From IMG/VR virus record IMGVR_UViG_2711768004_000006: a stretch of 43,743 nt of DNA; one strand, 5' to 3'. Of the stretch, positions 108 through 11,453 are shown one piece after another (positions within the stretch are counted from its first letter, which is position 1; each line of letters opens with the position of its first letter). This DNA comes from a virus. Taxonomy: Duplodnaviria > Heunggongvirae > Uroviricota > Caudoviricetes. The notes below the pieces were generated by a model. It was not told the origin of the DNA. It worked only from the letters and a program-made list of their open reading frames with translations, and did not search any database. The position numbers and the translations under genes were made by a program.

Positions 108-274
108 CTATTCACAGTTAACTGAAACAGTATCGTTTTTTTACAGCCAATTTTGTTTGTCCTTTTATAATAAAAAAGTGCTGAAGTTCATTTCATGGAA
201 TGAACTTCATAAAAACTCCTACTTATTTCTTTTAACAAAGCCATTTGTCCATCGGCTTTAACTGAATGTCCATC

Positions 275-1981
275 ATGTTACCGATAAATAATAACTTTTC
301 ATTGTCCCAAAATTCTTTTTATAACACTATTTCCGGTACATATGCTGATTACTTTTCAGCATGGGATAAATGGGAAAAACAAGCGCTCCCCGGTGAAAAT
401 CGGAATGAAGCGGTCTCCCTACTTAAAGAATGTCTCATCAATCAGTTCAGTGAGCTTCAACTGAATCGTTTAAATCTGTCCTCGCTACCTGACAACTTAC
501 CACCTCAAATCACTGTTCTGGAAATTACTCAGAATGCCCTAATATCATTACCAGAATTGCCAGCATCGCTGGAATACCTTGACGCCTGTGACAATCACCT
601 GTCAACACTTCCTGAATTACCCGCATCTCTGAAACATCTTGATGTAGATAACAACCAACTAACCATGCTTCCTGAATTGCCTGCATTGCTGGAATATATT
701 AATGCAGATAACAATCAGCTAACCATGCTTCCTGAATTACCTACATCGCTGGAAGTGCTCTCAGTAAGAAATAACCAGCTGACATTTCTCCCTGAGTTAC
801 CTGAATCACTGGAAGCGCTCGATGTAAGTACTAATCTTCTGGAAAGCCTACCAGCCGTACCTGTAAGAAATCATCACTCAGAGGAAACCGAGATATTTTT
901 CCGGTGCCGCGAGAATCGCATCACATACATTCCGGAAAATATACTTAGCCTTGATCCGACCTGCACTATCATCCTCGAAGACAATCCTCTGTCCTCACGG
1001 ATCAGGGAGTCTCTGTCGCAACAAACCGCCCAACCGGACTACCACGGCCCACGGATTTACTTCTCCATGAGTGACGGACAACAGAATACACTCCATCGCC
1101 CCCTGGCTGATGCCGTGACAGCATGGTTCCCGGAAAACAAACAATCTGATGTATCACAGATATGGCATGCTTTTGAACATGAAGAGCACGCCAACACCTT
1201 TTCCGCGTTCCTTGACCGCCTTTCCGATACCGTCTCTGCACGCAATACCTCCGGATTCCGTGAACAGGTCGCTGCATGGCTGGAAAAACTCAGTGCCTCT
1301 GCGGAGCTTCGACAGCAGTCTTTCGCTGTTGCTGCTGATGCCACTGAGAGCTGTGAGGACCGTGTCGCGCTCACATGGAACAATCTCCGGAAAACCCTCC
1401 TGGTCCATCAGGCATCAGAAGGCCTTTTCGATAATGATACCGGCGCTCTGCTCTCCCTGGGCAGGGAAATGTTCCGCCTCGAAATTCTGGAGGACATTGC
1501 CCGGGATAAAGTCAGAACTCTCCATTTTGTGGATGAGATAGAAGTCTACCTGGCCTTCCAGACCATGCTCGCAGAGAAACTTCAGCTCTCCACTGCCGTG
1601 AAGGAAATGCGTTTCTATGGCGTGTCGGGAGTGACAGCAAATGACCTCCGCACTGCCGAAGCCATGGTCAGAAGCCGTGAAGAGAATGAATTTACGGACT
1701 GGTTCTCCCTCTGGGGACCATGGCATGCTGTACTGAAGCGTACGGAAGCTGACCGCTGGGCGCTGGCAGAAGAGCAGAAATATGAGATGCTGGAGAATGA
1801 GTACCCTCAGAGGGTGGCTGACCGGCTGAAAGCATCAGGTCTGAGCGGTGATGCGGATGCGGAGAGGGAAGCCGGTGCACAGGTGATGCGTGAGACTGAA
1901 CAGCAGATTTACCGTCAGCTGACTGACGAGGTACTGGCCCTGCGATTGTCTGAAAACGGCTCACAACTGCACCATTCATAA
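275..1981 (+). CDS. ipaH: IpaH-family type III effector, E3 ubiquitin ligase (N-terminal LRR + C-terminal NEL domain)
   Basis: N-terminus MLPINNNFSLSQNSFYNTISGTYADYFSAWDKWEKQALPGE, repeated LTxLPELP LRR units, conserved NEL C-terminus with catalytic Cys in ATESCEDR (codon 1352-1354). ORF track starts at 266 (MSIM...); ATG at 275 matches the usual IpaH start. Confidence 0.9.
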   Translation: MLPINNNFSLSQNSFYNTISGTYADYFSAWDKWEKQALPGENRNEAVSLLKECLINQFSELQLNRLNLSSLPDNLPPQITVLEITQNALISLPELPASLEYLDACDNHLSTLPELPASLKHLDVDNNQLTMLPELPALLEYINADNNQLTMLPELPTSLEVLSVRNNQLTFLPELPESLEALDVSTNLLESLPAVPVRNHHSEETEIFFRCRENRITYIPENILSLDPTCTIILEDNPLSSRIRESLSQQTAQPDYHGPRIYFSMSDGQQNTLHRPLADAVTAWFPENKQSDVSQIWHAFEHEEHANTFSAFLDRLSDTVSARNTSGFREQVAAWLEKLSASAELRQQSFAVAADATESCEDRVALTWNNLRKTLLVHQASEGLFDNDTGALLSLGREMFRLEILEDIARDKVRTLHFVDEIEVYLAFQTMLAEKLQLSTAVKEMRFYGVSGVTANDLRTAEAMVRSREENEFTDWFSLWGPWHAVLKRTEADRWALAEEQKYEMLENEYPQRVADRLKASGLSGDADAEREAGAQVMRETEQQIYRQLTDEVLALRLSENGSQLHHS

Positions 1982-2160: not shown

Positions 2161-2784
2161 TTACTCAACGTCAAACGCCCGAATTGAAGCCAAATCATCC
2201 AGACCGCTCAGCTCCTCTTTCATTTCACGCTGACGGCGATAAATCTCATCGTTGCGATCGACCTGCGCCTGCACCATTGCTGCCGCCAGTTCTTCCAGTT
2301 CCGGCATCGACAGTTTCACCTGCTGATTATCGGCATCGCTCCACGCCATATGTGTTTGTGCTGTGACAGATTTTGCCAGCATGACTACCGGGGACAGGCG
2401 GCCCAGTGAGTTGGGGCCAGCATTCCAGATACGACCGTTCCATTCAAACGTGAACGGCTTCGCCTCCTGTTCTGTGCGCCATGCTTCAATTTCCTGACGT
2501 CTGGCCTCTCTGGCCGCTTCCAGCATTTCTGGTGTCACAGTGAATGGGGCTATCTCACCCCATTTGCCACTTTGCAGTTCCTGCCAGATTCGCTGACCCG
2601 TCGGTGCGACATCATCAGCGGTGGCTGTGTAGGGGACTGCCTGGTCCCTGTCGTCAAAAAAAACGTCACAGTCTACTGCGCCACTTTCGGTATAACGGGG
2701 ATTAATGATTTTTTTAATTTCCACGGTGCATTCCTCACGATGTGCGAATAAAAAGCCCGGGCATTGCGCCAGAGACATGAGCAT
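2161..2784 (-). CDS. Putative phage tail fiber assembly protein (remnant prophage)
   Basis: 207-aa ORF directly downstream of and overlapping the fiber-like ORF; C-terminal region resembles tail fiber assembly chaperones; assignment by context. Confidence 0.4.
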   Translation of the reverse strand: MLMSLAQCPGFLFAHREECTVEIKKIINPRYTESGAVDCDVFFDDRDQAVPYTATADDVAPTGQRIWQELQSGKWGEIAPFTVTPEMLEAAREARRQEIEAWRTEQEAKPFTFEWNGRIWNAGPNSLGRLSPVVMLAKSVTAQTHMAWSDADNQQVKLSMPELEELAAAMVQAQVDRNDEIYRRQREMKEELSGLDDLASIRAFDVE

Positions 2785-3763
2785 CCGGCACCCCGGACAG
2801 GGCGCTATATGACCCCGGTAATGAATGCTCTGAACATCCCGTAATGAAAAATTGTGGGGATGCTATATACGTTCCGGTGGGAGTACTGGGCACTGAAATC
2901 CCCACCGGTCCCAGTCGTGAGCCTCTGTATGACTGCCCCCTGACAAGTCTGATGACTTTATCACCGTCAGCTTCTCCCTGGTACGCAGCAATAATCAGCC
3001 CGCCAATGTCAGGGTCTCCCCATCTGTTGCAGACAGAGCTCGCCACGATTCTGTAAATAATATCTTCTGTGGTTATATTTATTTTCACCCAGCCAGTCAG
3101 TCTGGATATGGGCCAGTAGCAGTAGCGGGTGTGATAAATGGGGCCGTTAATGCCGTAAAAAGTAAGGGATTTGGCTCTGTACCTCGGTTCTGTTGTCTCA
3201 GGGCGTGCATCAGTCCACCGGATGCTGAGCACCCCTTCAAACCGTGTGTCGGGTATGATGATGTCGTAGGGGCCAGCAACGGAATATTCACCTGGCAGCG
3301 CATTCCTTACCCAGGCCAGGAAATCACTCTTAGTGTCAAAACGGATAACATCTTCAGGCAGAAAAGCACACCCAAAGCCGAATGCGCCGGGTATCGCCAG
3401 ACGGCCTTTTGTCCGGTCGTAAATGTCGCTCTGTGCTTCCATCGTGGCCGCACTTTTCAGCCCCAGATTATCCCGGGACTTCTGTTGTGCCTTTTCGCCT
3501 GCGGCCCCGGCGCTCTGCTGCGCCTGCGCCACCATTTCCTCAAAGCGTTTGACGACATCCGGTTTCAGGTCGCCCTCATCAGGAGCAATCAGAAAGTCAT
3601 TCAGCGTGCCGGGCTTTGAGTCGTCGTATACAGCAATGTCGCCAACGTTGTACTCGTTGTGCCAGCCCGGTTTCAGATACACACCATATTTTCCAGTCCG
3701 CGCATGGAAACAGTATTCACCATCGTTTCCTGTCATCACATCAGCAACAGTGTGCATCACCAC
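2735..3763 (-). pseudogene. Phage tail fiber / host-specificity protein fragment, 5'-truncated at the IS66 end
   Basis: 342-aa open frame whose upstream end runs straight into the IS66 terminus at 3780 with no native start; followed by an assembly-chaperone-like gene. Confidence 0.3.
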
Positions 3764-3779: not shown

Positions 3780-4335
3780 GTAAGCGTGCAGCAAGAACCG
3801 TATTGACGGGAATGTGTTATTCAGTCGGCAGTGCTACGCGCCAGGGGAGCAGTTCGCCGACCCGGTTTATCGGCCAGTCGGCTATGACGTCAAGGACATA
3901 GCGGAGGTAGCTTTCTGGCTCCACTCCGTTCAGTTTGCACGTCCCGATCAGGCTGTACAGCAGCGCTCCCCGCTCTCCTCCATGATCCGAACCGAAGAAC
4001 AGGTAGTTTTTGCGGCCCAGACTGACCATCCGCAACGCATTTTCAGCGATGTTATTGTCCGCCTCAGCCCAGCCATCATCTGCATAGTACGTCAGCGCCG
4101 GCCACTGGTTCAGGGCATATGCGAACGCTTTCGCCAGTTCTGAGTGTCGCGACAGGGTTTTCATCTTTTCACGCAGCCAGCTTTCCAGGGATTTCAGCAG
4201 CGGTTTCGTTTTCAACTGACGTTCGGCAAGGCGCTGTTTCAGCAGGAAGATGTCGTCAGAAGAGATGTCGTTCATAAGCCCGTATTTTACCGGGCTTATT
4301 CTGTGACAACCAGGATAAAGAGATTTACAGCATGG
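3780..4335 (-). mobile_element. IS66-family element 3' fragment (tnpC C-terminal part plus terminal repeat)
   Basis: Plus strand at 3780 begins GTAAGCGTGCAGC (IS66-type terminus); ORF 3817-4275 encodes the TnpC C-terminus; in-frame stop at 4336-4338 marks the truncation. Confidence 0.7.
3817..4275 (-). pseudogene. tnpC: IS66-family transposase TnpC, C-terminal fragment
   Basis: ...ENALRMVSLGRKNYLFFGSDHGGERGALLYSLIGTCKLNGVEPESYLRYVLDVIADWPINRVGELLPW; only ~150 aa of a ~500-aa protein. Confidence 0.75.
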
Positions 4336-4493: not shown

Positions 4494-5231
4494 TCATTCA
4501 CTCTCTTTCAAACCAGTTTTAACTGTTTGTGGTTTTGGGTAAGGCTGGACTTTGAATAGCTTTGTGTTAAGGCGTTTTCTGGCTCTCTTGTCCAGAAACC
4601 GGATGTAACGAAACTGACGGAATTTATGAACACTGGCTCTGTCGATATTAGCCCGCAGATGTTCACCTCGCTGTCCTCCTCGTTTGATTGCATTCTTGCA
4701 AATCTCGTGATACCACTCGCCATCAAGTTCATAGAATGTTGTTTCATGACTGCCTACATAATCAAAATTGCTTGCCTGGTACACGACACCAAGACAGCCA
4801 CAACGCTCATCTGCAAACGACTGAACCCACTGCACCTGCGGATAAAGTTGTCTGATTAGTTTGAGCGCGTAACTGATTGCCCTTGATTCGGAGTTTCTCG
4901 GCATACAGTCATGCAGCCATAACCGGTTAAGCTCCATATATTCGCGGTTCTGCGTGCCAGTTACGACGCGTGCACCATTGTTTGGATTAAGGGCATAACC
5001 CCATTGCATTACGCCAACCAGCTCCCGTTCTGAAAATATGCCCAGATGAAGGTAGGAATTATTTACGAAACGATGGCTGTAATGTTTATTGACGACGACC
5101 AGCCGGGCCAGCCAGCAACTTATTGTCTCAACCCGTAACTCACGGGAGCCATAACCGACGATATTGTCGTTATAGTGAATAAGTTCAGGCGTGCTGATGA
5201 TACGGGATGTAACTTGCTTTCTGTTCCCCAC
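4494..5231 (-). CDS. mom: Mom-like DNA modification protein (start uncertain, probably non-ATG)
   Basis: Long ORF immediately downstream of and overlapping com, at the prophage right end as in Mu; GTG at 5231-5229 preceded by AGGAA; assigned by synteny only. Confidence 0.5.
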
Positions 5232-5385
5232 GACAGGATTTCCTTGTGTATGTGGGGTGCTCTGTGGCGCTCTGAGATGTGATTTGATTGAGGGTTTTAC
5301 AGCGCGGACATTTAACTTCCAGATAACTGAAGCTGGCTCGTGCCAGTAGCTTGTTACAATGTCGGCACCGTATGTTTCGATACAT
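5185..5385 (-). CDS. com: Com zinc-finger translational activator of mom
   Basis: [35 protein letters not shown]...EHPT matches the Com CxxC...CxxC zinc-finger pattern; GGAGG 11 nt upstream; overlaps the mom frame. Confidence 0.8.
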
Positions 5386-5640
5386 GGCCGCATAACCTCC
5401 TGCTTTGTTGTTGATATCTTTATCACTCAATCGATCGACAAAAACGATCGATTTGATTTATTTAATTGATACAACAAATAACACGAAATGTCATTAGCGA
5501 AAATTTATGAGTTTGATCACTAATTTTAAACGGTGCTGTAACGCATAAGTGCTGAATGATTGTACATTTGAATACCGCAAAGCAAACAAATCAACTAATT
5601 TATAGAAGTCAATTGGTTAATTGCCAGCGTAAGAGGCTGC
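5386..5640 (-). promoter_or_regulatory. com-mom upstream regulatory region with clustered GATC (Dam) sites
   Basis: GATC at 5433-5436, 5446-5449 and 5515-5518 upstream of com; AT-rich. Confidence 0.4.
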
Positions 5641-5641
5641 T

Positions 5642-5935
5642 ATGGACAATCATGTAACGACGAGAAATCGAAAAATGATTGAAAATGCGGAAATCTATAA
5701 TGATTATTTTTCCGATTATTCAGATGCCTGCAAATACAGTTCGAGTGCGGGAGAGTTCATATGCTTCAACTTTTTTATTAAATCTTATGTTTTTCCTCCA
5801 CAGCAAGAAGATGGAGGTGTGCCACCTCCTGAAATCACTTTGCACCGTATAGCCTCCGTCTCAATGATGGAGCAACAGGCTAATGAGCTGTATAGCATTC
5901 TGGGAACGATTCTACAAAAGCGTGAATCGGACTAA
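5642..5935 (+). CDS. Hypothetical protein (AT-rich cargo gene divergent from com-mom)
   Basis: 97-aa ORF with AAGAGG RBS 8 nt upstream; hairpin CAAACCGG-12 nt-CCGGTTTG plus T-rich tail at 6066-6093. Confidence 0.4.
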   Translation: MDNHVTTRNRKMIENAEIYNDYFSDYSDACKYSSSAGEFICFNFFIKSYVFPPQQEDGGVPPPEITLHRIASVSMMEQQANELYSILGTILQKRESD

Positions 5936-6102
5936 TGATACCGGTTCATTTGCCTGCCCGGATGGGGAAGCAGGATTGACTGCTCCATAAGCAGCTATAT
6001 TTCTGAATACGAAATACTATCCAGCGATTACATATGGCTGGATAGCGGCAAAGATGTTTTCATTAGTGTCAAACCGGCAGAGGACACCACCGGTTTGTAT
6101 TG

Positions 6103-6357
6103 TTACATCATGGTACTGTCAGTTCCGGGCTGAGCCGGGTCTGGTTGCTCTGGCTGCGCGTCGGTTTTCGGCTCATTATCAGCATCACTGGCCGCAACTG
6201 CTGGCCCAATAAGTTTTGCCAGCACTTCATCAACGTAAGTGTCGATTTGTGCCTCAAAATCCTTGCGGACCTGCGCTTTCAGCAACTTATTTACTTCACC
6301 GGAATACAGTGCCTGTTTTACCAGGTCTTCAGTGACGGTGCCTTTAATTTCTGGCAT
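6103..6357 (-). CDS. Hypothetical acidic protein
   Basis: 84-aa ORF with strong RBS (AAGGAGGatatacATG); Pro/Glu/Asp-rich C-terminus. Confidence 0.5.
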   Translation of the reverse strand: MPEIKGTVTEDLVKQALYSGEVNKLLKAQVRKDFEAQIDTYVDEVLAKLIGPAVAASDADNEPKTDAQPEQPDPAQPGTDSTMM

Positions 6358-6392
6358 GTATATCCTCCTTATGCGGGAATAAAGCCCTGCAA

Positions 6393-6575
6393 TCAGGGCT
6401 GGGTCGGGTCTTTTGGGAGCGGAGTTACCTGCGCTGTTTTACTGAGTTTTTCAGCTGCTGCGTCCTCAATTTTGCGGCGAACATAATTTCTGATGGCCTT
6501 ATAACCACCACTCACCAGATATAACGCACATACTGCCGTGCAGAAATACAATAAAATAAGCTGTAAAAATGTCAT
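6393..6575 (-). CDS. Small single-pass membrane protein (60 aa)
   Basis: MTFLQLILLYFCTAVCALYLVSGGYKAIRNYVRRKIED...; hydrophobic N-terminal helix then basic stretch; GGGAGGG RBS; ATG at 6575 (track start at 6587 is TTG). Confidence 0.5.
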   Translation of the reverse strand: MTFLQLILLYFCTAVCALYLVSGGYKAIRNYVRRKIEDAAAEKLSKTAQVTPLPKDPTQP

Positions 6576-6634
6576 TATCCCTCCCAATTATTGACATGGT
6601 GTTGACACCGGTAATATCTGTTAGGTAAAAAGGT

Positions 6635-6714
6635 GCACTGCATTTTTTGCTTTGGATATAACGATCTTTTTGCCGCCGGTTTCTTGTTTTCCCTTACCGG
6701 CGGCATTTTTTTAT
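6635..6714 (+). ncRNA. Candidate small antisense RNA (promoter plus intrinsic terminator)
   Basis: TTGACA at 6591 and 6602 with TAATAT/TAAAAA -10-like hexamers; terminator GCCGCCGGT-15 nt-ACCGGCGGC followed by ATTTTTTTAT (6672-6714); no credible ORF. Confidence 0.3.
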
Positions 6715-6719
6715 CCTGC

Positions 6720-8774
6720 TTACGCGTTATTCACTTCCACCACGATACTGTCAATCAGTACCGGGTAAGTCGCATTTTTAGTGATATCGGTCACGCGCAA
6801 CTTGTCTGCCGTAAACGTGCCGACCGGAGACTGCGACAGCATGAATGGTGTCCCGTCCTTACCATCAATGACCGGCGTCACCTCAATACTGTTGTTACCG
6901 GCAAAACGGAAGCCCAGCGTATGCCATTCGTTATTAAATGCGCCGAATGACCCCAGCTTCGTGTTCTGCGCCGTGTTTCCTTTGTGATACATCACGTTAA
7001 GGTCTGTGGCATCGCTCTGTACGTAGAACGATGCCAGCAGGTTATGACCGGCATTTCCTTCCAGAGTAACCCCTTGCGGCAGGGCAGAAACCGGCCAGTA
7101 CAGCGCCAGTGCGTACTGATTAGCCGTAAGCGCGCCATCGAGTTTAAAACGACAACTGACAAGACCACCTTTACCCAGCAGGTCCGCACCATTACCAGCA
7201 TCATGCTCAAGGTACCAGGGGGCTCTTCCTGTTTCCTTGGTCAGTTTCATTGCCTTACCCCCGCTGGCTCCGGCATCATCCACGATTTGAGCCTTGCCAC
7301 CTCCGGCAGCCCAACCCTGTGGTGTCAACCGTCCTTCAGACTCAGATGCCCGGTAAGCAAATAGCGTACTCATCGTCGTGGTGTCTGCGGGTGGCGTGGA
7401 CGGTTTTGATGGTGTATCAGGTGACGGCTTCTCATCCGGTGGTGTCACGGTCTGCCCACGCATCAGTTCAGCCGTGCGCCCTGCATGGAGCATAATAGCT
7501 GAGGCCAGACGGTCTGAAATGACGCCCCTGCGTGCCCATGAGCTGAAATGGCTGTCACGCTGTGTCGAAACAAAACTGCCCTGGGTTCGGGATGCTGCAC
7601 CGTAATACCCGACAGCCACAATATCCGGGTCTTCCGCCGGAGCATTCGTTGGCGTGCTCTGTCCATTCTCATCCGTCAGGAACGGTACAAAGAAAATTTT
7701 CTGTGCTTCCTTGCCTTTGTAGCCACCGTATACTGCCTCATATTTATCGGTGCCAGCGTTTTTCCAGTAATACGTGGTATCACCGCAAATCCACGGCACC
7801 GTGGTGGCATTTCCACTCACGCACTGCGCAGCAAGCGGAGCCAGGTCAGTTCTGAACTGCTGAACCATGGCCGTGAATAAACTATTATGCTGCTGGCTTC
7901 CTGAGGCAAGGTCTGCCTCTCCCTGCATCCAGACCACAGCCAGAAGTTTGTTTTTCGGGTTTTTCGCCAGCGCGACTTTGGTGCGGCTTACCAGGTCCTG
8001 ATACAGAGGTTTACCGGCCCCCCAGCGTGAAGAATCAGCGGAAGCACCGCTGGCCTCACTGAATGAGCCGTCGGCTCCAGTGGTGAATGCTGACCCGCCA
8101 CGACAACAGGGCACCAGAAGTATCCCGGCATTCTGTGGGATATAGGGAAGCAGTTTTTTGGCAATATGCAACCCCTGACCGACAGTCCCGTACTGGCCTT
8201 TTGCCAGATCAGCTTTCGGGTGGTTTATCCCGCTCATATCCTGAACATCATGCAGGCAGTGGTCTGCCGGAATGATGTCGTTGTATGTACACGACGTACC
8301 GTTGGGCGTTACCGTACTGCGGCGTGCCAGTTGCTTAATGCGTGGGTCCGGGCGGTCAAACGAATCCGGTAACGGCAGCCCCTCGCCGTAGGCCATGCCA
8401 TTTGACTGACCCGCGAGAATGACAACAAAGTAATATTCCGGCTCTGAACTGCTGCCATTCGTGCTACCGGAAGGCCCGGCGTTATCCGGTGCATTCCAGT
8501 CGGAGGGCGTGAGCGTTCCGGCCACGTCAGATGTGATTGGAATGATGCCAGTCACGCCTGAACTGGTGATTTCTGCACTGGGATTACCGGATACCGGCAT
8601 TACCCATAATGGCTCTTTCGTGCTGAAGCGGATCACGCAGTCTGCGAAGGTGATCCCCCCTTTATTACCCGAAGGGCGGAAAGGGCTTTCAATAAATGCC
8701 ACCGTGCCACCGGCAACCTTGACTGAAAACTCTCCGGGCATGGCGGAGAGCATTTTCCACTTGGAGTCTGACAT
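6720..8774 (-). CDS. SGNH/SASA-family carbohydrate O-acetylesterase-like protein with C-terminal lectin-like domain (prophage cargo)
   Basis: GQSNG motif (ILAGQSNGMAYG, Ser codon about 8403-8405) and WMQGEAD motif typical of sialate O-acetylesterase-type SGNH hydrolases; Pro/Thr/Ser linker; beta-rich C-terminus. Confidence 0.6.
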   Translation of the reverse strand: MSDSKWKMLSAMPGEFSVKVAGGTVAFIESPFRPSGNKGGITFADCVIRFSTKEPLWVMPVSGNPSAEITSSGVTGIIPITSDVAGTLTPSDWNAPDNAGPSGSTNGSSSEPEYYFVVILAGQSNGMAYGEGLPLPDSFDRPDPRIKQLARRSTVTPNGTSCTYNDIIPADHCLHDVQDMSGINHPKADLAKGQYGTVGQGLHIAKKLLPYIPQNAGILLVPCCRGGSAFTTGADGSFSEASGASADSSRWGAGKPLYQDLVSRTKVALAKNPKNKLLAVVWMQGEADLASGSQQHNSLFTAMVQQFRTDLAPLAAQCVSGNATTVPWICGDTTYYWKNAGTDKYEAVYGGYKGKEAQKIFFVPFLTDENGQSTPTNAPAEDPDIVAVGYYGAASRTQGSFVSTQRDSHFSSWARRGVISDRLASAIMLHAGRTAELMRGQTVTPPDEKPSPDTPSKPSTPPADTTTMSTLFAYRASESEGRLTPQGWAAGGGKAQIVDDAGASGGKAMKLTKETGRAPWYLEHDAGNGADLLGKGGLVSCRFKLDGALTANQYALALYWPVSALPQGVTLEGNAGHNLLASFYVQSDATDLNVMYHKGNTAQNTKLGSFGAFNNEWHTLGFRFAGNNSIEVTPVIDGKDGTPFMLSQSPVGTFTADKLRVTDITKNATYPVLIDSIVVEVNNA

Positions 8775-8859
8775 CGTCTTTTCTGCCTGTTTCTGAATTA
8801 AACAGAGTCAGAATAGCGACCGCTGAAAAATATGTGTTTTGCGGAAATTCAAAAAAGCG

Positions 8860-9426
8860 TCACGGTACTTTTGGTGACGGAGCTGGTGAGGCAGGAAAAT
8901 AACGATAAAGGGTGGAAAGGCCAATATCAAATATCAGTGCGATTTGTTTACGGGACTCGCCATTAGCCAGCAAACGGGCGATTTGCTCCCGCTCTTTCTC
9001 TGTCAGTTTCTGAGGTCTGCCGCCATGACGCCCCTGAGCACGGGCAGCAGCAAGACCCGCGCGTGTACGTTCAATAATGAGTTCCCGCTCCATTTCCGCC
9101 AGCGCGCCCATTATATGGAAAAAGAAACGTCCCATGGGAGTGGATGTATCAATATTGTCCGTAATGCTGCGGAAGTTAACGCCGCGTTGCCGGAGTTCTT
9201 CTGTTAAAAGGACAAGGTGCTGCATACTGCGTCCAAGGCGATCCAGTTTCCAGACCAGCAGGGTATCCCCTGGCCGGAGTCGCTTTAATGCGCGTTTAAG
9301 TCCGGGACGCTCCCTTGTCTTACCGCTTATTCTGTCTTCGAAAAACAGCTCACATCCTGCACATTCCAGCGCATTTCTTTGTAGCGCCGTATTCTGGTCA
9401 TTTGTTGACACCCTGATATACCCAAT
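8860..9426 (-). CDS. gin: Gin/Pin/Hin-family serine DNA invertase (5' end lost in assembly gap)
   Basis: IGYIRVSTNDQNTALQRNAL...GDTLLVWKLDRLGRSMQHL...MGRFFFHIMGALAEMERELIIERT; the open frame reaches the N-run at 9427, so the true start is inside the gap. Confidence 0.9.
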   Translation of the reverse strand: MGYIRVSTNDQNTALQRNALECAGCELFFEDRISGKTRERPGLKRALKRLRPGDTLLVWKLDRLGRSMQHLVLLTEELRQRGVNFRSITDNIDTSTPMGRFFFHIMGALAEMERELIIERTRAGLAAARAQGRHGGRPQKLTEKEREQIARLLANGESRKQIALIFDIGLSTLYRYFPASPAPSPKVP

Positions 9427-9686
9427 NNNNNNNNNNNNNNNNNNNNNNNNNNNNNNNNNNNNNNNNNNNNNNNNNNNNNNNNNNNNNNNNNNNNNNNNNN
9501 NNNNNNNNNNNNNNNNNNNNNNNNNNNNNNNNNNNNNNNNNNNNNNNNNNNNNNNNNNNNNNNNNNNNNNNNNNNNNNNNNNNNNNNNNNNNNNNNNNNN
9601 NNNNNNNNNNNNNNNNNNNNNNNNNNNNNNNNNNNNNNNNNNNNNNNNNNNNNNNNNNNNNNNNNNNNNNNNNNNNNNNNNNNNNN
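9427..9686. other. Assembly gap (N-run)
   Basis: 260 N. Confidence 0.95.
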
Positions 9687-9725
9687 CAGGATATCACTAT
9701 CTCATCAGGAACAGTAACCGCCATA

Positions 9726-9920
9726 AGACTGGGGTCGGTGACCGCACATATGCCCGGAACATGGGAAAGCTGGGATCTGAATCTGGGGGGCGGCAATGTT
9801 CTTACCGGAATTAAAGTACAGGATGTCGGTAAGAATACGGCAGATAACGTCGGCGGCGTGTATTACCGGCCGTTGCAGTATCTGTTAAATGGAGCATGGG
9901 TGACGGCTGCAAGTATATAA
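9726..9920 (+). CDS. Alternative tail-fiber C-terminal segment (Sv'-like), inverted relative to S
   Basis: Ends ...GGVYYRPLQYLLNGAWVTAASI, paralogous to the S C-terminus ...FIAFRPLQKLVGGTWITVSQL; opposite strand, convergent with U; in-frame stop at 9723. Confidence 0.4.
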   Translation, partial: RLGSVTAHMPGTWESWDLNLGGGNVLTGIKVQDVGKNTADNVGGVYYRPLQYLLNGAWVTAASI

Positions 9921-9951
9921 TGATATTCAGAAGGCCTTCCGGCCTTCTTTA

Positions 9952-10473
9952 TTACTGTGGCTGCTCAGGCCATTTAATGGCGTTAAATTCAGCTTCTGTT
10001 TTAATGGCGGGTAGTTCCATTTTCTTCACCTGACTGATGTATGCCATCCATTGGGTAAGTGCTGCTCTGTCTTCATCGCTGATGGTGCCCAGTTGTAGCT
10101 CCGTTCTCCAGTCATTAATTTTTTCATATGCCTGATTAAGATATGACTGGCGCATTGCTTCCAGTTTTCTTGCGTAGTTAACCGGAATACGGGAGATTAT
10201 GCCATTATCAAACTTCCAGTTTCCTGAAATATCCGTGCCTTCAGGGAGTTCATCGACCTCAACCACAGAAAACCCCGCAGGATACAGCGCCGAGGCGTCC
10301 TGTGATATTGAGCAGATAACGCCGCTGTCAGGTGTTATGCAAAGTTTATATTTTTTGGTGAATAATGGCAGGGATTCGTAGAAATCCTTACCATCTTCAC
10401 TCTGGAAATACTGAACATTATTACCATATGGCATATTTTCAGGATAATAACGGGTTATATTTTTTAGTTCCAT
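9952..10473 (-). CDS. Tail fiber assembly protein (Mu U-like)
   Basis: 173-aa ORF directly downstream of the fiber C-terminus, inside the invertible segment. Confidence 0.7.
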   Translation of the reverse strand: MELKNITRYYPENMPYGNNVQYFQSEDGKDFYESLPLFTKKYKLCITPDSGVICSISQDASALYPAGFSVVEVDELPEGTDISGNWKFDNGIISRIPVNYARKLEAMRQSYLNQAYEKINDWRTELQLGTISDEDRAALTQWMAYISQVKKMELPAIKTEAEFNAIKWPEQPQ

Positions 10474-10524: not shown

Positions 10525-11453
10525 TTATAACTGAGATACCGTAATCCATGTACCTCCGACTAATTTTTGCAGGGGTCTGAATGCTATAAAATCGTTTGAA
10601 GCATCAACTTTACTGTCAATCTGCAGGCCTGCCATAACATTACCGTACGCAGAGTAATATGCCCCACCGTACATTACCTGCCTGTTCTCTGCTCCCAGCC
10701 TGATATCCTGGATATATCGGGAATCCGCATCCTGCTGTGTTATACCAGAAGTGATGTTTATGTCCTGCGTCCCGTCAAAGGGAACACCATTAATTGTGTG
10801 GGCATTTGCCAGCCTGTTCGCGGCAACGGCGGTGCCGTCCGATGGCAGNNNNNNNNNNNNNNNNNNNNNNNNNNNNNNNNNNNNNNNNNNNNNNNNNNNN
10901 NNNNNNNNNNNNNNNNNNNNNNNNNNNNNNNNNNNNNNNNNNNNNNNNNNNNNNNNNNNNNNNNNNNNNNNNNNNNNNNNNNNNNNNNNNNNNNNNNNNN
11001 NNNNNNNNNNNNNNNNNNNNNNNNNNNNNNNNNNNNNNNNNNNNNNNNNNNNNNNNNNNNNNNNNNNNNNNNNNNNNNNNNNNNNNNGTCAGCGGGACCA
11101 AGACTGTTTTTTGTGGCAAGCGTCCCCAGACCAAGATAACCACGGGCCAGACGCTGGGCCTCCGCACCGGCATCAGCAATTTCTTTCAGGTTATTTTTCC
11201 GGGAAAAGGCATTCGCAGCGATAATGGCTTTAATGGACAGCGTAAGCTGGTTTAACTGCGCCTTATCCGGCTGAATACTGGCTTCAGCCAGAATATTCAG
11301 CAGTTCGGCCTGGAGAATATTCAGCCAGTCCTGACCAATCCAGCTGATACCTTTTTGTCCGTCACCTTCGGTAAACCAGGTGGTGGTATTACTCTGCGCC
11401 GGTGCCAGCGCAGGCATATTCGCCACGCCGGAATTATTATCAACATGAAACAT
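10525..11453 (-). CDS. Tail fiber protein (Mu S-like), interrupted by assembly gap
   Basis: N-terminus MFHVDNNSGVANMP...TTTWFTEGDGQKGISWIG; after the gap the frame ending at 10525 reads LANAHTINGVPFDGTQDINITSG...RPLQKLVGGTWITVSQL. The track ORF 10758-11453 joins the wrong frame across the N-run. Confidence 0.7.
10849..11087. other. Assembly gap (N-run)
   Basis: 239 N. Confidence 0.95.

Follow-up and report, generated by a model that had tools for sequence, protein, structure and literature searches.

The gin–com interval of a Mu-like prophage

The present analysis concerns a 684-codon open reading frame (ORF) in a Mu-like prophage, carried on a 43,743-nucleotide stretch of viral DNA (IMG/VR record IMGVR_UViG_2711768004_000006), the whole of which is referred to as the window. 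All positions are window coordinates; the encoded proteins were scanned with Pfam, PHROG and NCBIfam, and RefSeq annotation was taken from an identical locus. The ORF (6720..8774, minus strand) is uninterrupted and present exactly as first described. Its product is very probably NanS-p, a prophage-borne sialate 9-O-acetylesterase, which on the basis of its sequence comprises three domains joined by low-complexity linkers. The host element encodes Mu transposases A and B, the gpT major head protein, the tail sheath and gp48, as expected of a Mu-like prophage.

The gene is part of an insert. Its upstream border is the stop codon of a gin-type DNA invertase gene (8860..9411, minus strand; Pfam Resolvase and HTH_7; PHROG_125; RefSeq 'recombinase family protein'), the first ~7 codons of which fall inside an N-masked run. 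Two such runs, at ~9412..9700 and ~10850..11100, lie within the invertible (G-segment-like) tail-fibre region and truncate both the start of gin and the fibre ORFs in the window. The downstream border is formed by a GATC cluster of the mom promoter (5429..5468, minus strand), identified as common to Mu by alignment with the Mu gin–com spacer. It is followed by com, encoding the translational activator of mom (5185..5385, minus strand; Pfam Zn_ribbon_Com and RefSeq annotation), and by the DNA modification gene mom (4494..5231, minus strand; Pfam Mom, 1.6e-77, and RefSeq annotation), the last gene of the Mu-like prophage. The right end of Mu is arranged alike, running in the same orientation from gin through the GATC-rich mom promoter region to com and mom, but its gin and com are only 94 bp apart, and the DNA between them here is therefore extra. 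A previous sequence-only reading had already proposed such an insertion, at a size of about 2.7 kb. Its presence is borne out, whereas its size has to be revised to ~3.39 kb (window ~5469..8859), because homology to the Mu mom promoter region restarts only at ~5468. Four ORFs are found in the insert: nanS-p, the genes of two small proteins (DUF1378 and DUF826) and an antisense ORF of 86 codons. The insert is present at a level of at least 99% in 22 complete genomes, and at a coverage of at least 80% in 27 complete E. coli genomes.

Catalytic and C-terminal domains, and the accompanying genes

The SGNH/SASA catalytic domain spans residues 112–428 (7491..8441, minus strand), with the nucleophile Ser124 in the GQSN motif (residues 122–125), a WMQGEAD motif at residues 282–288, and His409 in block IV (RDSH). 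Residues 110–428 match the E. coli 9-O-acetyl-N-acetylneuraminic acid (9-O-acetyl-Neu5Ac) esterase NanS/YjhS, of known structure (3pt5), with an E value of 1.8e-117 (phmmer against the PDB), and Pfam places SASA (PF03629) at residues 117–312 (1.5e-13). Both S124 and H409 are invariant in an alignment of 15 homologues (A1). They align with the residues that we take to be Ser19 and His301 of NanS, the check on this numbering being that the 3pt5 chain is offset by 11 throughout. In published alleles block IV reads RSSH or RASH (PMC10462455), and according to a review the Ser and the His of NanS have been confirmed as catalytic by mutagenesis (PMC10017367). The sequence-only reading had proposed that the esterase assignment would fail if the GQSN serine lay outside a catalytic triad; this is a poorly posed condition, as only the Ser and the His, and no acidic residue, are established in NanS (PMC10017367).

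Following the catalytic domain, a Pro/Thr/Ser-rich inter-domain linker was read from the sequence at residues 429–468 (7371..7490, minus strand). The Pro/Thr/Ser stretch itself (TPPDEKPSPDTPSKPSTPPADTTT) occupies residues ~440–467, and the length of the linker differs between homologues. The remainder of the protein (residues 469–684; 6723..7370, minus strand) forms a lectin-like jelly-roll domain, recognized by Pfam as DUF6645 (PF20350, residues 533–650, 7e-68) and matching over residues 469–683 the C-terminal domain of a phage NanS-p of known structure, 6yp6, with an E value of 7e-98 (phmmer against the PDB). The conserved residues Y554, Y559, Y584 and F654 align with Y510, Y515, Y540 and F611 of vb_24B_21 from phage phi24B, which constitute the proposed sugar-binding site of the phi24B C-terminal domain (PMC10462455). 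At the N-terminus (MSDSKWKMLSAMPGEFSVKVAGG), direct reading revealed no hydrophobic signal-like stretch.

Matches to solved structures at E values of 1e-98 to 1e-117 rule out a chance ORF. In combination, the structure matches, the conserved Ser/His pair and the aromatic residues of the sugar site therefore point, with high confidence, to a NanS-p-type enzyme. The motifs, the linker and the lack of a secretion signal were all present as described in the sequence-only reading, and its assignment of a sialate O-acetylesterase with a carbohydrate-binding-type C-terminal domain agrees with the profile and structure matches. It had not recognized the NanS-p family, the three-gene lambdoid module described below or the separate N-terminal domain. 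An identical protein sequence is found in a cluster of 599 member sequences (P0008).

The protein resembles chromosomal NanS (YjhS, 3pt5) in that the catalytic domains are homologous throughout and share the GQSN serine and the block IV histidine. It would presumably catalyse the same reaction, i.e. conversion of 5-N-acetyl-9-O-acetylneuraminic acid (Neu5,9Ac2) to Neu5Ac and acetate. NanS is, however, an exported single-domain protein of ~326 residues encoded in the nanCMS operon, whereas the window protein is phage-borne, carries additional N- and C-terminal domains and lacks an export signal.

As a whole, the cargo corresponds to a module found ahead of the lysis genes in lambdoid prophages. 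Downstream of nanS-p in the window follow the genes for a DUF1378 small protein with one hydrophobic segment (6393..6575, minus strand; PF07125, 1.2e-31) and a DUF826 small protein (6103..6357, minus strand; PF05696, 6.4e-16), as second and third genes of the module. In phage 933W, nanS-p (L0105) is likewise followed by a DUF1378-like ORF, a DUF826-like ORF and the S holin gene, in line with the published placement of DUF826 and DUF1378 between nanS-p and S (PMC10462455). A lambdoid prophage of E. coli FEA3 without Shiga toxin (Stx) genes has the order Q, tRNAs, nanS-p (647 codons), DUF1378, DUF826, holin, lysozyme, Rz and terminase. Outside Mu-like prophages, no DNA comes closer to the esterase body than that of this prophage, with 91.5% identity from codon 106 to 24 bp beyond the stop. 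Judging by the module order in 933W and FEA3, the cargo is therefore a lambdoid late-region module in a Mu-like backbone.

The NanS-p proteins of Stx and non-Stx lambdoid prophages (933W L0105/z1466; phi24B vb_24B_21, also gp84) have the same SASA catalytic and lectin-like C-terminal domains and inter-domain linkers, no signal peptide, and DUF1378 and DUF826 encoded after the gene; identity to 933W-type alleles amounts to 62–66%. The host element differs, being here a transposable Mu-like myovirus, and so does the location of the gene. In lambdoid prophages it lies between Q/stx and the S-R-Rz lysis genes, whereas here it lies between gin and the mom promoter, and Q-dependent late control therefore cannot apply.

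The end of the insert next to the mom promoter is AT-rich (38–40% GC) and holds the antisense ORF for an 86-residue hypothetical protein (5675..5935, plus strand), situated between DUF826 and the mom promoter and annotated as a coding sequence by RefSeq; the protein had no match in Pfam, PHROG or NCBIfam. Beyond the prophage, its mom end abuts a truncated transposase gene of the insertion sequence (IS) IS66 (3817..4275, minus strand), preceded in the left flank by lambdoid tail-fibre remnants (2161..3763, minus strand) and by the gene of a 571-residue type III secretion effector of the IpaH/SspH type, with leucine-rich repeats and a NEL E3 ligase domain (266..1981, plus strand). This arrangement suggests a Shigella or enteroinvasive E. 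coli host in which Mu was inserted into an IS within an ipaH-bearing prophage remnant.

The N-terminal domain and its distribution

Published NanS-p proteins consist of three domains, i.e. DUF1737, SASA and the C-terminal domain (PMC10462455). In the window protein, DUF1737 (PF08410) was absent from the Pfam results even at E ≤ 1; in its place, residues 1–105 (8460..8774, minus strand) hold an all-beta, PHROG_4772-like domain of ~80 residues and a linker. Homologues retrieved by database search fall into two groups. The first comprises proteins of 678–691 residues with SASA and DUF6645 only, which are 83–100% identical over their full length. The second consists of ~647–650-residue proteins with DUF1737, SASA and DUF6645, among them some non-Stx lambdoid alleles, with up to 89–91% identity that extends only over residues ~95–684. 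In alignment A1, homology to the DUF1737 type starts at about residue 106, in the linker just before PEYY, and the DNA breakpoint relative to the lambdoid allele is likewise at codon 106. Residues 1 to ~82 constitute a separate domain, for which an AlphaFold2 (AF2) model of the domain alone displayed six beta strands at a predicted local distance difference test score (pLDDT) of 75; no relatives were found by sequence in Pfam, NCBIfam or the PDB. As judged from these comparisons, DUF1737 is swapped at codon 106 for an unrelated all-beta domain. An 'SSP' self-cleavage motif as in phi24B was also considered; the corresponding residues 108–112 read SSSEP, in a stretch that varies among close homologues (GGNREPE, GSTTEPE), and no claim is made.

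Two Salmonella-type IMG/VR contigs display further variants. One (L043, 6714..9074) encodes, downstream of gin in a Mu-like context, a NanS-like esterase with another N-terminus (MKYIYSGPPTGMSITENG), and the other (L044, 9953..12070) a NanS-like esterase with a short N-terminus (MSRRVMSYSGYPLTV). There are therefore more than two alternative occupants of the N-terminal slot.

The pairing of the N-terminal domain with a particle type was examined in 34 + 5 loci. A HMMER search of 1.84 billion representative proteins returned fragments of the same protein, one spurious match and one Salmonella relative, a fragment that again continues into a GQSN esterase. The Salmonella homologue has an N-terminal domain only 30% identical to that of the window. 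It is encoded on a Mu-like prophage contig with the order gp45–48, tail fibre, invertible segment, gin, two small ORFs and the nanS-like gene. A scan of IMG/VR yielded 34 loci with the domain, and every one with enough flank had Mu-like neighbours, with gp46/47/48, tail fibre assembly and gin upstream and DUF1378, DUF826, com and mom downstream. Further Salmonella-type loci agree with a Mu-like context. The domain was thus found fused only to NanS-like esterases and, wherever the flank sufficed, in Mu-like prophages of E. coli/Shigella and Salmonella. Among the Mu-like copies, identity of the C-terminal domain to the window ranges from 40% to 100%, whereas gp47, com and mom are 92–100% identical. 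Exchange with other alleles therefore affects the esterase body, while the N-terminal domain stays with the Mu backbone.

Two IMG/VR contigs (L006, 754..5136; L011, 3545..7746) carry the Mu-type nanS-p with an N-terminal domain 100% identical to that of the window, followed by a lambdoid-type DUF1378, a 933W-type S holin and an endolysin instead of DUF826, com and mom. They represent either a real Mu/lambdoid recombinant that arose via the common gene body or an assembly chimera.

Among 5426 complete E. coli genomes the domain is present in 32, with up to three copies per genome; in the complete genomes of TOE17, AST198 and JE86-ST05, up to three gene copies with the domain per chromosome correspond to several Mu-like prophages. 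None of the GTDB species-representative genomes scanned contained it. A tblastn search of phage genomes with the window domain returned only two Stx-phage records with a Mu-like insert and one weak match in a Vibrio phage, and the same search with a variant of the domain (P0138) gave no match. One Mu-like phage, inserted within the Stx2c phage record LC727881 (L002), has the same gin, nanS-p, DUF1378, DUF826 and com order. Directly after com, in place of mom, it carries a 350-codon ORF (9420..10472) that from its motifs (GTPCQAFS) looks like a C5-cytosine DNA methyltransferase gene. In another, Salmonella-type contig (L041, 1264..1500), the N-terminal domain stops after 78 codons while the tblastn match to the window protein runs on to 3351. 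Either the gene is split or has become a pseudogene, or the sequencing is in error; the form resembles that of free-standing PHROG_4772 proteins.

By hmmscan, the window domain alone falls below the reach of PHROG_4772. A profile of the fused N-terminal domains (A7), however, matches the free-standing PHROG_4772 proteins with an hhalign probability of 93.6% (E 2e-7), and the fused Salmonella variants match PHROG_4772 directly (3e-13 to 2e-3). In the tblastn searches of phage genomes, it took the L041 variant to retrieve free-standing homologues. In the Ackermannviridae phages LIMEstone1 of Dickeya (ORF168) and UPM 2146 of Klebsiella (gp126), an annotated late promoter precedes the PHROG_4772 gene, which is located 9 bp upstream of the structural gene for the 'tail needle knob'. 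The member from Pseudomonas phage 15b lies 9 bp upstream of the gene for a collagen-repeat protein matching tail-fibre families, and a Pantoea Kylevirus also has a member. These proteins are homologous to the N-terminal domain, similar in size (~78 residues) and all-beta, but they are free-standing, with no enzyme fused, and adjoin tail needle knob or fibre-like genes. The N-terminal domain is accordingly a phage late-module domain, which would fit a virion-adaptor role.

Proposed function and alternative explanations

Members of the NanS-p family act on Neu5,9Ac2 as well as on mucin sialic acids with one, two or three O-acetyl groups (PMC8065619; PMC10462455), and nanS-p alleles give lysogens a growth benefit (PMC8065619; PMC8319020). 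From this published knowledge of the family, the window protein would take 9-O-acetyl (and 7/8-O-acetyl) groups off both free Neu5,9Ac2 and the sialic acids bound to mucin; once deacetylated, these could be used by the Nan pathway and reached by sialidases. As there is no signal peptide, the enzyme would leave the cell only upon prophage lysis, to the benefit of surviving lysogens and their neighbours. The gene would have arrived as the lambdoid late-region module nanS-p–DUF1378–DUF826. Its transcription would take place with, or just after, that of gin or the late genes, since the 85-bp gap downstream of gin showed no terminator, in a scan that was itself uninformative. It is also plausible, as a hypothesis, that the N-terminal domain attaches the esterase to a Mu-type virion.

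Several results weigh against this interpretation. The full-length AF2 model, built from a 21-sequence alignment, reached a pLDDT of 41.7 and is unusable for the SGNH fold or the active-site geometry; the evidence on the fold of the enzyme was therefore taken from sequence identity to solved structures. The scan for promoters and terminators yielded counts that did not clearly exceed those expected from shuffled sequence, with no convincing signal around nanS-p, so the expression timing given above is inferred. Fold searches with the N-terminal domain gave a weak, generic resemblance to cupin-like barrels and no specific function. Finally, retention of this domain could be a trivial outcome of homologous recombination limited to the gene body rather than of selection. 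As recombination is possible only in the homologous body, the retention was not counted as proof of selection.

Display of the esterase on the virion, which extends the reading of the gene as nanS-p and does not exclude it, is possible but doubtful. Here, the PHROG_4772-like domain would anchor the esterase and the lectin to the Mu-type particle, on the capsid or on the tail/baseplate. The model for such an arrangement is gp84 of phi24B, a NanS-p reported to be a proteolytically processed capsid decoration protein whose DUF1737 domain assembles into hexamers on the central hexons and thereby serves as the anchor (bioRxiv 10.64898/2026.04.10.717836). A virion-associated role was among the options of the sequence-only reading, and for the DUF1737 form it has thereby gained published support. 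It is exactly the DUF1737 anchor that is swapped in the window protein, at a breakpoint that falls on codon 106 within the linker. The replacement is found in a Mu-like prophage at every examined locus with enough flank, and its free-standing homologues adjoin tail needle knob or tail-fibre-like genes. Conversely, PHROG_4772 is a family of unassigned function from which no member has been reported to be structural; the gene is missing from Mu and the relatives of Mu that have been studied, and is hence not needed for Mu-type virions. The L043 esterase has another N-terminal variant in a Salmonella Mu-like context, and the fold of the domain matches only the generic barrels mentioned above. We tentatively propose that NanS-p proteins could be modular virion-display proteins, in which the N-terminal slot takes an adaptor matched to the particle, DUF1737 for the phi24B type and a PHROG_4772-like domain for the Mu type. 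The probability that we assign to this general scheme is well below even. If it is true, Mu-like virions released in the gut carry a mucin-sialate esterase and a lectin, and PHROG_4772 represents a new family of virion-binding adaptor domains.

A different substrate appears improbable. The esterase would in that case act as a receptor or surface modifier, deacetylating bacterial O-antigen or K1-type polysialic acid and so aiding adsorption or excluding other phages, a role that has been raised as a possibility for NanS-p (PMC8065619). The position of the gene, adjoining the tail-fibre/host-range region, is compatible with it. However, a lysogen has no means of placing an enzyme that lacks a signal peptide on its own surface, alleles with closely similar catalytic and lectin domains have been shown to be specific for sialate and mucin, and the sequence gives no hint of lipopolysaccharide substrates. 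It is more improbable still that the module is an inert passenger, a decaying and functionless remnant of lambdoid/Mu-like prophage recombination: mosaic exchange with lambdoid alleles is evident in the variable C-terminal domain, and a 933W-type holin gene is linked to nanS-p in two IMG/VR contigs, but the ORF is intact with all catalytic residues present, it is identical across many isolates (the 599-member cluster and the 22 complete genomes), and Mu-like prophages of Salmonella retain the architecture at 30–50% identity, which argues for long-term purifying selection.

The reading of the gene as nanS-p concerns an ordinary enzyme of a known family. No description of its Mu-like context or of the clean replacement of DUF1737 by a PHROG_4772-like domain was found, and among the papers searched none mentions nanS-p in connection with Mu-like phages. 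With NanS-p, pathogenic E. coli can use the O-acetylated sialic acids of colonic mucus as nutrients, and its study has so far been almost confined to lambdoid prophages, Stx prophages among them. As shown here, the enzyme module also occurs in Mu-like, transposable prophages of E. coli/Shigella, and divergent homologues occupy the same position in Mu-like prophages of Salmonella. In these genomes a probable sialate esterase goes unrecognized under its current annotation as 'DUF6645 domain-containing protein'. What differs is the very domain by which, according to the recent report on phi24B, NanS-p is held to the phage capsid.

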